Source: a virus (taxonomy: Duplodnaviria; Heunggongvirae; Uroviricota; Caudoviricetes). From it: 11,292 bases of DNA. Below, in pieces: positions 8,234 through 11,292 of this stretch (the stretch's first letter is position 1; each line of letters opens with the position of its first letter). The stretch lies in the IMG/VR virus record IMGVR_UViG_2548876860_000007; one strand, given 5' to 3'. Made by a program: the position numbers and the translations under genes. Under the pieces are notes generated by a model that made no database searches, was not told where the DNA came from, and saw nothing but the letters and a program-made list of their open reading frames with translations.

Positions 8234-8605
8234 ATGCGTATAGAGTTTGTTTTGCTTTACCCGCCGACGGTGAACACCTACTGGCGACGTCGTGGCAGCA
8301 CATATTTTGTATCAAAAGCCGGTGAGCGTTATCGCCGTGATGTGGCGCTTATTGTTCGCCAGCAGCGGCTGAAATTAAGCCTGTCCGGAAGGCTGGCGAT
8401 AAAGATTATTGCCGAGCCACCGGATAAGCGCCGCCGTGACCTGGACAATATTCTGAAAGCACCGCTGGATGCACTGACGCATGCGGGGCTTCTCATAGAC
8501 GACGAGCAGTTTGATGAAATCAATATTGTGCGCGGTCAGCTCGTTCCTGGTGGGCGACTGGGCGTGAAGATTTGCGAAATCAGAGGTGATGGTAATGGGG
8601 CGTGA
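8234..8605 (+). CDS. rusA: RusA Holliday-junction resolvase (123 aa)
   Basis: N-terminus LLYPPTVNTYWRRRG and catalytic-region motif DKRRRDLDNILKAPLDALTHAGLLIDDEQ match the RusA family as recalled. AGAGG SD 8223-8227. Confidence 0.9.
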   Translation: MRIEFVLLYPPTVNTYWRRRGSTYFVSKAGERYRRDVALIVRQQRLKLSLSGRLAIKIIAEPPDKRRRDLDNILKAPLDALTHAGLLIDDEQFDEINIVRGQLVPGGRLGVKICEIRGDGNGA

Positions 8606-8945
8606 TATGTATGAGGTTTTAGATCGCTGGGGGGCATGGGCTGCAGCAGAAAATAGCGGTGTCGATTGGCAACCGATAGCAGCGGGCTTCAAGGGGCTTT
8701 TGCCACATGGCAAAAAGTCACGTCTCCAGTGTGATGATGATGAAGGCATCATGATAGACGGTTGTGTGGCTCGGTTGCGAAAGTATAAACCAGAGGAATA
8801 TGAGCTGCTCATAGCTCACTTTGTTATTGGTGTTTCTCTACGCTCAATCGCGAAGAAACGCAGGTGCTCAGATGGAACTATAAGAAAGGAGCTGCAAACT
8901 GCATTAGGCTTTATTGATGGATGTATATGCTTGATTCTATCATAA
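8595..8945 (+). CDS. Late-gene antiterminator Q, QuuD/phage-82-type (Phage_antitermQ family)
   Basis: MGRDMYEVLDRWGAWAAAENSGVDWQPIAAGFKGL...CDDDEGIMIDGCVARL... parallels the QuuD N-terminus as recalled. GAGGTG SD 8583-8588 favours ATG 8595; alternative starts at GTG 8586, ATG 8589 or ATG 8607. Overlaps the rusA stop. Confidence 0.8.
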   Translation: MGRDMYEVLDRWGAWAAAENSGVDWQPIAAGFKGLLPHGKKSRLQCDDDEGIMIDGCVARLRKYKPEEYELLIAHFVIGVSLRSIAKKRRCSDGTIRKELQTALGFIDGCICLILS

Positions 8946-8958
8946 GTTATGACTGTTA

Positions 8959-9345
8959 CTACTCGTTTGCTTGAGCTTTCGATTCGGCGTCAGATAAAGC
9001 ATCAATACGAATATTTATGTTTTTTAATAGCTTATTGTCTAGAACGATAAGACATTGGTTGTAGTGCGCAATTTGGTCTGGTGTTAGGTTAGGGTTGGCC
9101 AGGCAGTTCGTGATGAATTTTCTGGCCGTTTTTATTTCCCTTTTCATTCTTACATCATTAAGCGTAGGCAAACCTATGTAAGCGATAAGAAGAATTACCA
9201 CATGAGATAAGCCGACAGCAGCTCCAGGCGCCAATGATTTGAAGAAGGCTAATTGAGGAAGCCAGTCAAAAAGGAAATTCAATCCCGCAGTGATAAGGGT
9301 GGTAAACCATGCCTGCATTGCCAGGTAGGATTTAGTGTTCGCCAT
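8959..9345 (-). CDS. Predicted membrane protein (128 aa): two N-terminal TM helices plus charged C-terminal tail; third gene of the reverse operon
   Basis: ATG 9345..9343 directly abuts the upstream TGA (9348..9346). AGGAAGG SD. Hydrophobic stretches YLAMQAWFTTLITAGLNFLF and AAVGLSHVVILLIAYIGL. Stop lies 13 bp from the convergent Q stop. No family recognised. Confidence 0.7.
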   Translation of the reverse strand: MANTKSYLAMQAWFTTLITAGLNFLFDWLPQLAFFKSLAPGAAVGLSHVVILLIAYIGLPTLNDVRMKREIKTARKFITNCLANPNLTPDQIAHYNQCLIVLDNKLLKNINIRIDALSDAESKAQANE

Positions 9346-9591
9346 TCACCTTCCTGCACTTGCTTCGTTGCGAGTTTTGAGTTCGCGTAGCAGTAGCGCC
9401 AACTCTTCTGCGTCATTTTCGTTTCTAACGCTGACTTTCCTTTTAGCGGTTCTGCCTTCAGGATCGGTGTAGGTTAGTTCAATATACGCATTCGGCTTTA
9501 CCCAAACCAAGAACCTAAGCACAGCATATCTGACCGTCGCTGCGACAGCCATGAATACAGTGATGTAAAGCATAATGCTTAGGATTGACAT
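9346..9591 (-). CDS. Predicted small membrane protein (81 aa): one N-terminal TM helix plus charged C-terminal region; second gene of the reverse operon
   Basis: ATG 9591..9589 lies 3 nt after the upstream TAA (9597..9595). SILSIMLYITVFMAVAATVRYAVLRFLVWV hydrophobic segment. No family recognised. Confidence 0.7.
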   Translation of the reverse strand: MSILSIMLYITVFMAVAATVRYAVLRFLVWVKPNAYIELTYTDPEGRTAKRKVSVRNENDAEELALLLRELKTRNEASAGR

Positions 9592-9594
9592 GAT

Positions 9595-10473
9595 TTAAAG
9601 TAGTTTCCTATCTGCCGCCGCTCTGTGGCGTATAACCTTAGTAATACTATAGCGTGGTTTAGACAGCGCGCCATTTGTTTCTTTTGTTGTTTCTGTCAGT
9701 TCTACAACAAAAAGATCACCCTTACAGAATGCTGCTTGGTTGTGTTCAACCCGTTCAAGAAAAGCCTCATCTTTCATAGATGCGCTAACTTCTTCGCCAT
9801 TTGGCAGGATGATATCCCAGCTTTTTCCTTGCTTGAATCGAACATTAGCAAAATGTACATTAGCTTGGCGTGTCGTTACGTGCGTTTTCTCGACAAAGGT
9901 GGATTTTGCAGTTTTAAAACTTACTGCTTCAGCTTGCGTCACCCTGACTACCTTATGCTTCTGCTGTGAAACTGAGAACGTGGATGGTTTTTCAGTCTGC
10001 AGGGGTTTATAGATTAATTTATCCAGTTCTTTTCGGATGATTGGACTGGTTATTAATTTTTGAATGTCGTTACTGCATTTAACCTTCTCACCATCCACTT
10101 CGATTTCTGCTGTATCTTTTTGTTCATCGACGACAATGGAGCTGATTTTACGCCCTTTGAGCCATTCGATTATCCCGAGTACGCCACCTGCGGCAACTCC
10201 ACCACCTGCAACGAGGCCAAGGGCGTTAATAGTTTTTATGCTCCCCATCACAGCAACAAGCAAAGTAAATGAACCTTCTTTTGTTGCCTTGATGTTGACT
10301 TTCGGCTCTGCTGTTTCGCCATTAATTATTTTTTCGGCGTGTTCAATCAGGGCACTAAGAGAGGTTAAGGCTTCGCCTAATGTTTTCGCGTCGATCTGAT
10401 TATCTGCGTATGCCTCTCCACCGTAGGCAATTTCGATTTCTGTTATTGGCATGTTTTCGAGTTGCTGCGTCAT
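9595..10473 (-). CDS. Predicted membrane-anchored protein (292 aa from ATG 10473; 303 aa from GTG 10506) with glycine-zipper TM helix and ~190-aa C-terminal domain of unknown function; first gene of the reverse operon
   Basis: Track ORF 9595..10506. ATG 10473 preferred because AAGGA lies 8 nt upstream. Hydrophobic glycine-rich helix INALGLVAGGGVAAGGVLGII flanked by charged regions. No family recognised. Confidence 0.7.
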   Translation of the reverse strand: MTQQLENMPITEIEIAYGGEAYADNQIDAKTLGEALTSLSALIEHAEKIINGETAEPKVNIKATKEGSFTLLVAVMGSIKTINALGLVAGGGVAAGGVLGIIEWLKGRKISSIVVDEQKDTAEIEVDGEKVKCSNDIQKLITSPIIRKELDKLIYKPLQTEKPSTFSVSQQKHKVVRVTQAEAVSFKTAKSTFVEKTHVTTRQANVHFANVRFKQGKSWDIILPNGEEVSASMKDEAFLERVEHNQAAFCKGDLFVVELTETTKETNGALSKPRYSITKVIRHRAAADRKLL

Positions 10474-10518
10474 CAAAAGCATCCTTTGCGCAAGAGAAAT
10501 AGCCACAGGATACAGATA

Positions 10519-10548
10519 ATTATGAAAAAATCACTAACGCGTACGCAA
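10519..10548 (-). promoter_or_regulatory. Candidate sigma70 promoter of the reverse operon (TTGCGT -18- CATAAT on minus strand)
   Basis: Minus-strand -35 TTGCGT (10548..10543) and -10 CATAAT (10524..10519), about 45 nt upstream of ATG 10473. Confidence 0.35.
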
Positions 10549-10593
10549 AAACTATCTTAATCTGTTAAGAGTGGTCGCTTCGCCACACAGCTT

Positions 10594-10618
10594 AAACCCG
10601 CATCAAGCGGGTTTTTTT
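10594..10618 (+). terminator. Intrinsic terminator on the plus strand in the operon-to-tRNA spacer (possible displaced tR'-like element)
   Basis: Stem AAACCCGC atca AGCGGGTTT followed by a T7 run (10612-10618) on the plus strand. On the minus strand it lacks a U tract. Confidence 0.45.
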
Positions 10619-10700
10619 GTGCCACTTATCTCGGATAGACATGGTGAATGCGCTGGTGGAGGAGATAAGGGTGATTTTTAACCAGGTGATTTTTGAATGC

Positions 10701-10738: not shown

Positions 10739-10814
10739 GGCCCTTTAGCTCAGTGGTGAGAGCGAGCGACTCATAATCGCCAGGTCGCTGGTTCAAATCC
10801 AGCAAGGGCCACCA
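10739..10814 (+). tRNA. tRNA with CAT anticodon (Ile2 lysidine-type or Met), ileZ/ileX-like
   Basis: 76-nt cloverleaf folded by hand: acceptor GGCCCTT/AAGGGCC, D-arm GCTC...GAGC, anticodon loop CTCATAA, T-arm GCTGG TTCAAAT CCAGC, encoded CCA end. Confidence 0.9.
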
Positions 10815-10894: not shown

Positions 10895-10971
10895 GCGTTG
10901 TTAGCTCAGCCGGACAGAGCAATTGCCTTCTAAGCAATCGGTCACTGGTTCGAATCCAGTACAACGCACCA
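10895..10971 (+). tRNA. tRNA-Arg (anticodon TCT), argN/argO-like phage tRNA
   Basis: 77-nt cloverleaf: acceptor GCGTTGT/ACAACGC, anticodon stem ATTGC/GCAAT with loop CTTCTAA, T-arm ACTGG TTCGAAT CCAGT, encoded CCA. Confidence 0.9.
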
Positions 10972-11008: not shown

Positions 11009-11140
11009 GTATCTGCGCCACGCCCGGCGCATATCAACCACAGAGCCTTTCGGGGGGGAGCTTACGGAGTGGTCAGTGTGACTTTCTCTGTGGGCAGATC
11101 GCTCCCGGGCGTTGGCTCACCCACCCAAAGGAACGTCACG

Positions 11141-11278
11141 ATGTTTGGTATTTTTGGTAAAAAAGCCCGCCGAGCGGCAGTGGAAATTAAAAAGTTTGAG
11201 AAACGTGATCTGGCACAGGCGGTTATTAATGCTGCCTACCTGGTGGCCTGTGCAGATGGTGAATGTGAGGCTTCCTAG
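11141..11278 (+). CDS. Small ORF (45 aa) ending at an amber codon; possible N-terminal part of a TerB-like protein (tentative)
   Basis: ATG 11141 with AAGGA SD 8 nt upstream (MFGIFGKKARRAAVEIKKFEKRDLAQAVINAAYLVACADGECEAS). The ...LVACADGE... segment resembles the TerB-domain ADG motif. TAG at 11276-11278; the same frame continues KAKI... to the window edge. Confidence 0.35.
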   Translation: MFGIFGKKARRAAVEIKKFEKRDLAQAVINAAYLVACADGECEAS

Positions 11279-11292
11279 AAAGCGAAGATCGA

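Follow-up and report, generated by a model that had tools for sequence, protein, structure and literature searches.

The DNA analysed here, hereafter the window, is an 11,292 nucleotide stretch from the IMG/VR virus record IMGVR_UViG_2548876860_000007 and forms part of an Escherichia coli lambdoid prophage, with positions 8900-10620 matching E. coli 2013C-3264 and strain 20.1 at 100% identity. Within it two small membrane proteins are encoded by the last two of three consecutive minus-strand open reading frames (ORFs), designated genes A, B and C below. The plus strand carries, in order, immunity and replication genes, a DUF968 gene, rusA (8234-8605) and the gene for antiterminator Q (8586-8945; Pfam Phage_antitermQ, E 3.8e-45, and annotated as such by PGAP), after which come the three minus-strand ORFs and then tRNA genes. 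Gene A (9595-10473, minus strand) encodes 292 residues from an ATG at 10473, the start used by PGAP and by its homologues, and its open frame reaches a GTG at 10506, equivalent to 303 residues. This frame stops with TAA, which is followed by ATC and then by the ATG of gene B (9346-9591, minus strand, 81 residues), leaving a gap of 3 nt between A and B. The TGA stop of gene B directly abuts the ATG of gene C (8959-9345, minus strand, 128 residues), the junction reading ...GGAAGGTGA|ATGGCG, and gene C and the Q gene are convergent with 13 nt between them. A, B and C thus form one tight same-strand operon in that order.

Both small proteins have the architecture described in an earlier note made from the sequence alone, namely one transmembrane (TM) helix in the 81-residue protein, two in the 128-residue protein, charged C-termini in both and a back-to-back TGA/ATG junction. 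The gene B protein contains a single strong N-terminal hydrophobic stretch (residues 1-31, Kyte-Doolittle values up to 2.18) and ends in a short charged beta-hairpin/helix tail. The gene C protein has a strong hydrophobic segment at approximately residues 41-59 (Kyte-Doolittle 2.1) with a weaker one ahead of it at approximately 8-28, and its AlphaFold2 model (pLDDT 77) consists of four helices, a helical hairpin formed by residues 2-28 and 30-57 and then two long charged helices that make up a charged helical tail of about 65 residues. Because basic residues follow the hydrophobic segments, the tails of both proteins are predicted by the positive-inside rule to be cytoplasmic. Comparison of E. 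coli and Salmonella orthologues indicated purifying selection, with ratios of non-synonymous to synonymous substitution rates (dN/dS) of 0.091 for B, 0.096 for C (dS 1.0-1.6) and 0.036 for A, and each of the two small proteins matched a PHROG family of unknown function from end to end (phrog_27630, E 8e-57, for B and phrog_26468, E 1e-87, for C). B and C are real, conserved genes. Gene B is nevertheless often left unannotated by PGAP and other gene callers despite an intact conserved ORF (for example in loci L001 12447-12695, L014 3279-3527 and L016 7745-8000). The gene C family is small: among 1.84 billion representatives it accounts for just 16 clusters at 50% identity, whose sizes, fragments apart, are 126-135 residues. 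A tblastn search of 50,697 phage records gave no match to gene C, in a megablast comparison of the region with phages only tRNA and backbone parts matched, and a Foldseek search of the gene C model against the PDB gave no match.

The three genes were found to occupy a discrete insertion. In a sister prophage of E. coli Combat2C1 (L060 3346-3440), with a Q gene 95% identical to that of the window, GTTATGA follows the Q stop and leads without interruption into AAAAATCACTAACGCG..., corresponding to window position 8952 joined to 10526. Against this empty site the inserted cassette, or moron, spans 8953-10525 (1,573 bp) and carries A, B and C with little else, its ends lying only 6 nt past the gene C stop and 52 nt upstream of the gene A start. 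It is bounded by a 7-bp direct repeat, (G/A)TTATGA, read from the sequence as GTTATGA on the left (8946-8952) and ATTATGA on the right (10519-10525), and there is no recombinase inside it. The full cassette was present at at least 99% identity in approximately 37 of 5,426 complete E. coli genomes.

To the right of the cassette lies a conserved 85-nt backbone leader (10526-10614, plus strand) which, according to a terminator scan, ends in an intrinsic terminator (10594-10614). Between E. coli and Salmonella the leader retains 85-90% identity even though synonymous change in gene A approaches saturation (dS approximately 1.8), and in the empty site the leader is contiguous with Q. A promoter-like sequence (TTGATG, 18 nt, TATCAT) is present at 8914-8943 inside the 3' end of Q. 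Together with the leader and its terminator this looks like a late promoter with a terminated leader, a PR' and tR' now split by the cassette, and it resembles the PR'/6S/tR' region of lambda in having a late promoter-like site and a short terminated leader at the end of Q. If these elements are indeed a PR'/tR' unit, then Q-modified transcription must cross the whole cassette in the antisense direction, and antisense late transcription through A-B-C would be expected. No consensus-grade sigma-70 promoter for the cassette was found in a promoter scan. The only candidate, TTGCGT, 18 nt, CATAAT on the minus strand, straddles the insertion junction and agrees with the consensus at 8 of 12 positions, below the scan threshold; it may serve as the cassette promoter, in which case its -35 element would be supplied by the leader region.

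The position between Q and the lysis genes is one known for cargo, and in related phages it carries Shiga toxin. Downstream of Q the Combat2C1 sister prophage (L060) has, upstream of its holin genes, an ArtAB-like ADP-ribosyltransferase AB5 toxin, and E. coli SCU-387 (L059) has a C5 cytosine methyltransferase together with a reverse-oriented HEPN-like nuclease and a DUF262 gene. As a precedent, phi80 has a defence gene, tai, that interrupts the Q-controlled operon in reverse orientation (PMC11364771). The E. coli cassette is a discrete insertion in a cargo slot between Q and the late terminator, oriented against late transcription.

Homologues of gene A were gathered from GTDB genomes, IMG/VR, assemblies, phage records and plasmids, with a scan of genome contigs providing four loci and most of the contexts coming from IMG/VR and annotated collections. 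In every proteobacterial locus with enough sequence, A was followed on its own strand by a single-TM gene of 79-89 residues and then by a gene of 121-161 residues whose product has two hydrophobic segments and a charged helical tail, the genes being separated by very small gaps or, in other lineages, overlapping by 1-4 nt. The triad was intact in 21 divergent lineages in which identity of A to the E. coli protein fell from 89% to 24%, with sizes confined to 284-309 residues for A, 79-89 for B and 121-161 for C. Pairwise identities of the three proteins were correlated (Spearman 0.80-0.81, 210 pairs), B and C diverging faster than A. These tightly constrained sizes and correlated identities argue that the three genes are inherited together, and by such sequence comparison the triad is transmitted as one unit in Proteobacteria that are very divergent and in mobile elements of several kinds. 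Its hosts include lambdoid, Mu-like and P2-like prophages, an autolykivirus-like element, an integrative island and Pseudomonas megaplasmids. In Serratia the triad lies at the end of a P2-like prophage tail cluster; in Vibrio it adjoins the integrase of a 14-kb autolykivirus-like element; in Pseudomonas bohemica and Gilliamella it is immediately downstream of a prophage repressor gene, which is LexA-like in the former; and in Mu-like prophages of Gilliamella and Orbaceae it shares a strand with the lysis cassette and lies just upstream of it. The Pseudomonas megaplasmids (approximately 370-500 kb) and an Enterobacter island that bears serine recombinases and a VapE-like gene have no lysis genes annotated near the triad. 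On the Enterobacter hormaechei island (L009-L012, 6747-7499) a divergent gene for a 250-residue tRNA_anti-like OB-fold protein always precedes the triad whereas other cargo varies, and a functional link between this protein and the Enterobacter triad is possible.

The product of gene A matched the PADLOC PDC-S42 model PDLC05015 (E 3.3e-53, residues 22-299) and the NCBIfam model NF053583, named 'LAPAL motif-containing putative phage structural protein' (E 1e-66). PDLC05015 is also matched by gp29 of mycobacteriophage MichelleMyBell (E 1.6e-16), by Lactobacillus phage A2 ORF19 (E 7e-77) and by proteins from Bifidobacterium Bbif-1, Vibrio and Pseudomonas. In the MichelleMyBell genome (KF986246) gp29, of 310 residues, is followed by gp30, of 67 residues with two TM helices, the pair being flanked by the lysis genes and the integrase. 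When an alignment of A homologues was compared with gp29 by hhalign the match was nearly full length (97.1% probability, E 6.3e-11, 267 columns), with coincidence of KEGSF/KPGSF, PL/APLAD, a Trp in the C-terminal domain, D-x-x-F-L-x-R-V and V-x-x-H-R. A Foldseek search with the gene A model also matched a cluster-N mycobacteriophage protein (E 5e-9), and a Vibrio A homologue, followed by genes of 83 and 161 residues, carries the depositors' annotation 'MMB_gp29_gp30__gp29'. On these sequence and model comparisons, gene A is a remote homologue of gp29 and a member of the gp29/PDC-S42 family. This link of the operon to a known defence family was absent from the earlier note. In phages A2 and Bbif-1, the two Gram-positive phages examined, the gene A homologue appears solo in a lysin-to-integrase or lysogeny region, and no small TM ORF was found after A2 ORF19. 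Listeria phage vB_LmoS_188 and Bifidobacterium phage PMBT6 are further Gram-positive temperate phages with a gp29/PDC-S42 homologue.

The AlphaFold2 model of gene A (pLDDT 82, pTM 0.70) comprises an N-terminal alpha/beta domain, a Gly-rich segment, a middle domain and a C-terminal five-stranded OB-like barrel with an inserted helix. The Gly-rich segment is a conserved hydrophobic stretch, LGLVAGGGVAAGGVLGIIEWL followed by KGRK (residues approximately 92-116 of the 303-residue frame, Kyte-Doolittle 1.97), modelled at low confidence. Weak similarity to the pore-forming defence effector EACC1 (PF19953) was detected in gene A, scoring 15.5 bits against a gathering score of 23.6, and in five of 20 family members over the same region (residues approximately 90-150, window approximately 10057-10239; best E 0.0011), which takes in the hydrophobic segment and the strands after it, all below gathering. 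DUF7946 matched the N-terminal domain in nine of the 20, again always below its gathering score, and the RexA-like DUF4747 did not match gene A or 20 relatives in a Pfam search. Profiles of genes A and C compared with the sequences of solved structures gave nothing meaningful. Searches of the literature yielded no paper on PDC-S42, the LAPAL motif or two WP accessions, and the supplements of the PDC paper contained no useful S42 entry.

The NCBIfam name would make A-B-C a virion or morphogenesis set, and it is the strength of the NF053583 match and the frequency of the family in prophages that speak for such a role. The cassette, however, lies in lysogeny or cargo regions and often antiparallel to structural operons, plasmids and islands that are not phage also carry it, sister prophages whose Q gene is 95% identical lack it, and no structural-protein fold match was found. 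A virion function is accordingly regarded as extremely improbable, and the LAPAL structural name is probably misleading because the family is homologous to gp29 and is present on plasmids and non-phage islands.

A role in lysis is the other function that might be read from the two small proteins, since both are small, possess TM helices and end in charged C-termini as judged by hydropathy and charge counts, an architecture that is holin-like. B and C would then be a holin/antiholin or pinholin-like pair that times lysis by the prophage itself, and the Gilliamella and Orbaceae loci, in which the lysis cassette directly follows the triad on one strand, are in keeping with this. The earlier note had argued against it, pointing to the lack of any endolysin or spanin gene nearby and to an orientation opposing the late operon. 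No endolysin or spanin gene was found within the window, and the lysis genes of the prophage itself, for a class II holin, RrrD lysozyme and Rz, are located in the 100%-identical annotated genome on the plus strand approximately 3.8 kb past gene A, beyond the window, so that the orientation of B and C on the minus strand was read correctly. The search of holin profile hidden Markov models (HMMs) that the note proposed has now been carried out with Pfam, PHROG, NCBIfam and PADLOC, and neither B nor C, nor any of 10-11 divergent relatives examined for each, was matched by a holin model, Pfam being followed to an E value of 1. Canonical lysis genes separate from the triad were found in five triad-bearing prophages, the E. 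coli prophage matching the window and those of Salmonella, Morganella (two) and Gilliamella, each with a recognised holin of its own; in the first four the triad is antiparallel to a late operon that has a separate holin and lysozyme. Of the two observations which the note had held would together overturn its view, holin-family matches and a same-strand lysis operon in related phages, the operon does exist in Gilliamella and Orbaceae, but the holin match there (Holin_2-3, E 3e-37) falls on the next gene, this holin, an SLT endolysin and an Rz1-like LysC being distinct from B and C. The triad also occurs in elements without annotated lysis genes nearby, or at a distance from such genes, and B and C are always tied to the gp29-like gene of about 290 residues. 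A holin/antiholin assignment was rejected on the absence of HMM matches and the presence of separate lysis cassettes, and a lysis-timing role of any kind is considered very improbable. The note's alternative, in which B and C serve the reverse operon as membrane effectors or anchors, is supported by their constant coupling to gene A and by a divergence that tracks that of A.

Since the large first gene of the cassette is related to a mycobacteriophage anti-phage protein, B and C are most likely the membrane subunits of a defence system. MichelleMyBell and Phrann prophages are reported to cut plating of Tweety by 4-5 orders of magnitude (PMC8549241), and the MichelleMyBell system is described as a toxic gp29 together with gp30, putatively a membrane protein, the pair defending against lytic phage by an unknown mechanism (PMC11856565). 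The PDC set, for its part, comprises 145 candidate systems with homologues embedded in BREX, DISARM or type I restriction-modification loci (Payne et al., bioRxiv 10.1101/2024.01.29.577857). We consider it reasonably probable that B and C are inner-membrane subunits of a mobile A-B-C cassette with a predicted function in gp29-type prophage defence, by abortive infection or exclusion. As judged from sequence, the function of the cassette is most likely protection against other phages, exerted at the inner membrane, and B and C would either tether and restrain a toxic A or form a membrane-permeabilising part controlled by A. In the mechanism we propose, the cassette would be expressed from the prophage in lysogens, and the cytoplasmic tails of B and C would keep A at the inner membrane, restrain it, or both. 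Infection by a heterotypic phage would trigger the complex, compromising the membrane or the energy state of the cell and aborting the infection, a trigger logic modelled on that proposed for lambda RexAB and Sbash gp30/gp31. During lytic growth of the prophage itself, Q-side transcription would traverse the cassette in the antisense direction, which could silence the three genes.

The positions occupied by the triad, the Q slot, sites downstream of a repressor, the end of a P2-like prophage, the Vibrio integrase and the Enterobacter recombinase island, are cargo or lysogeny positions and favour a role in prophage defence. Several points weigh on the other side. PDC-S42 is a candidate family only, and the function of its proteobacterial members is predicted. 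No homology of B or C to gp30 was detectable by hhalign, and the membrane partner is consequently analogous to gp30 rather than demonstrably the same. Carriage of A apparently alone by the Gram-positive phages A2 and Bbif-1 implies that A may not need membrane partners. Expression of the cassette in lysogens is assumed, given that the promoter scan found no consensus-grade cassette promoter. Details of the gp29/gp30 phenotype, lastly, rest on secondary citations (PMC11856565, PMC6426606, PMC8549241).

The same cassette could protect the lysogen in a different way, with A, B and C forming an inner-membrane complex that stops DNA entry and kills no cell, like SieA of P22 or Imm of T4. Hydrophobic segments are present in all three proteins, the cassette is prophage-borne in lysogeny or cargo regions, and single membrane proteins of cluster-N prophages are reported to exclude DNA injection (PMC6426606). 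The same source, however, describes the homologous MichelleMyBell defence as abortive-infection-like, with adsorption and injection proceeding, and gp29 is described as toxic in another (PMC11856565); moreover, the large OB-like cytoplasmic domain modelled for A would suit a sensor better than a plug. We regard such entry-blocking superinfection exclusion as unlikely.

The toxicity reported for gp29 (PMC11856565) bears on an explanation in which A or the small hydrophobic proteins are toxic and are neutralised by their partners, the triad acting as a toxin-antitoxin-like addiction or stabilisation module to the benefit of the element that carries it. Strict co-inheritance of three genes would fit a toxin and its antidote, as would the occurrence of the cassette on megaplasmids and integrative islands besides prophages. 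Against this, the only experimentally studied relative gives phage defence (PMC8549241, PMC6426606), and the family was picked for its embedding in defence systems (bioRxiv 10.1101/2024.01.29.577857). Toxin-antitoxin and abortive-infection roles are also not mutually exclusive. A module serving addiction is in our estimation quite unlikely.

A more specific version of the membrane-defence reading can be put forward tentatively, as a minority possibility. The triad may be a distinct three-component membrane death-effector in which a gp29-type A with an EACC1-like Gly-rich pore core and an OB-like sensor is restrained and positioned by B and C, the prophage protecting itself by antisense late transcription. 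MichelleMyBell gp29/gp30, PDC-S42 and the solo Gram-positive genes (A2 ORF19 and Bbif-1) would then belong with it to one defence family, widespread though unrecognised, with lineage-specific membrane partners.

Already known are the gene A family as a candidate and a validated, distant mycobacteriophage relative; no description of the obligatory pairing of A in Proteobacteria with two dedicated membrane proteins, of PDC-S42-gp29 homology or of this lambdoid insertion architecture was found in the literature searches made. Should the reading of A-B-C as a membrane defence cassette be right, the 'single-gene' candidate PDC-S42 would become a defined three-gene proteobacterial system, supplied with two missing components of which one routinely goes unannotated. 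Its homology would tie it to a validated mycobacteriophage defence whose mechanism E. coli genetics would gain access to. The locus would also add a clear case of a defence moron occupying the lambdoid Q-to-lysis cargo slot, with an orientation suggestive of self-silencing in lytic growth, and the probably misleading database name 'putative phage structural protein' would be corrected.

Beyond the cassette and leader the window contains two tRNA genes (10739-10814 and 10895-10971) and a TerB/TciA-like gene with an internal stop (11069-11292), which is a pseudogene in the RefSeq record. The first tRNA, with anticodon CAT, lies directly past the late terminator as in Shiga toxin (Stx) phages and is called tRNA-Met by ARAGORN but tRNA-Ile (ileZ-type) in PGAP and related Stx-phage records. 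An ORF for a HokD-type type I toxin was seen in the nin-like region (6512-6724).

Among the closest known systems is MichelleMyBell gp29/gp30 (DefenseFinder 'MMB_gp29_gp30'), which shares with A-B-C a homologous large subunit, both large proteins matching PDLC05015, together with one or more small membrane protein genes directly downstream and a location in a prophage cargo region next to lysis genes. It differs in having a single 67-residue protein with two TM helices where the triad has two membrane proteins, one with a single TM helix and one with two and a long helical tail. Profiles of B and C compared with gp30 by hhalign gave probabilities below 1%, and their identification as gp30 homologues was rejected. 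The hosts are Actinobacteria in the one case and Proteobacteria in the other, the lambdoid cassette is antiparallel to the late operon, and defence is known only for MichelleMyBell. With PDC-S42 of PADLOC the likeness is that gene A is a clear family member, although PDC-S42 is catalogued as a single-gene candidate and all 21 proteobacterial lineages compared have a three-gene operon, of which B and C match no PADLOC model.

Lambda RexA/RexB and Sbash gp30/gp31 likewise combine a protein of approximately 280-300 residues with small membrane protein(s) in one prophage operon (PMC6426596), sometimes positioned directly downstream of the repressor gene. In these systems a cytoplasmic sensor and a small membrane channel cause abortive infection by depolarisation. 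There is no sequence or domain relationship to A-B-C, and RexB and gp31 have four TM helices as against one in B and two in C, so that the comparison concerns only how such systems might work. Phage holins, for example those of class II (S21-type), resemble B and C in being small, in having one or two TM helices and in a C-terminus that is charged and cytoplasmic; B and C differ from them in the lack of a family match, a mostly absent linkage to endolysin, the 65-residue helical tail of C and the gp29-like gene to which they are always linked. For the EACC1 effectors (PF19953; bioRxiv 10.1101/2025.11.14.688446), no protease gene was found in or next to the cassette at any locus examined, and the weak, sub-gathering likeness in residues approximately 90-150 of gene A is a lead only.

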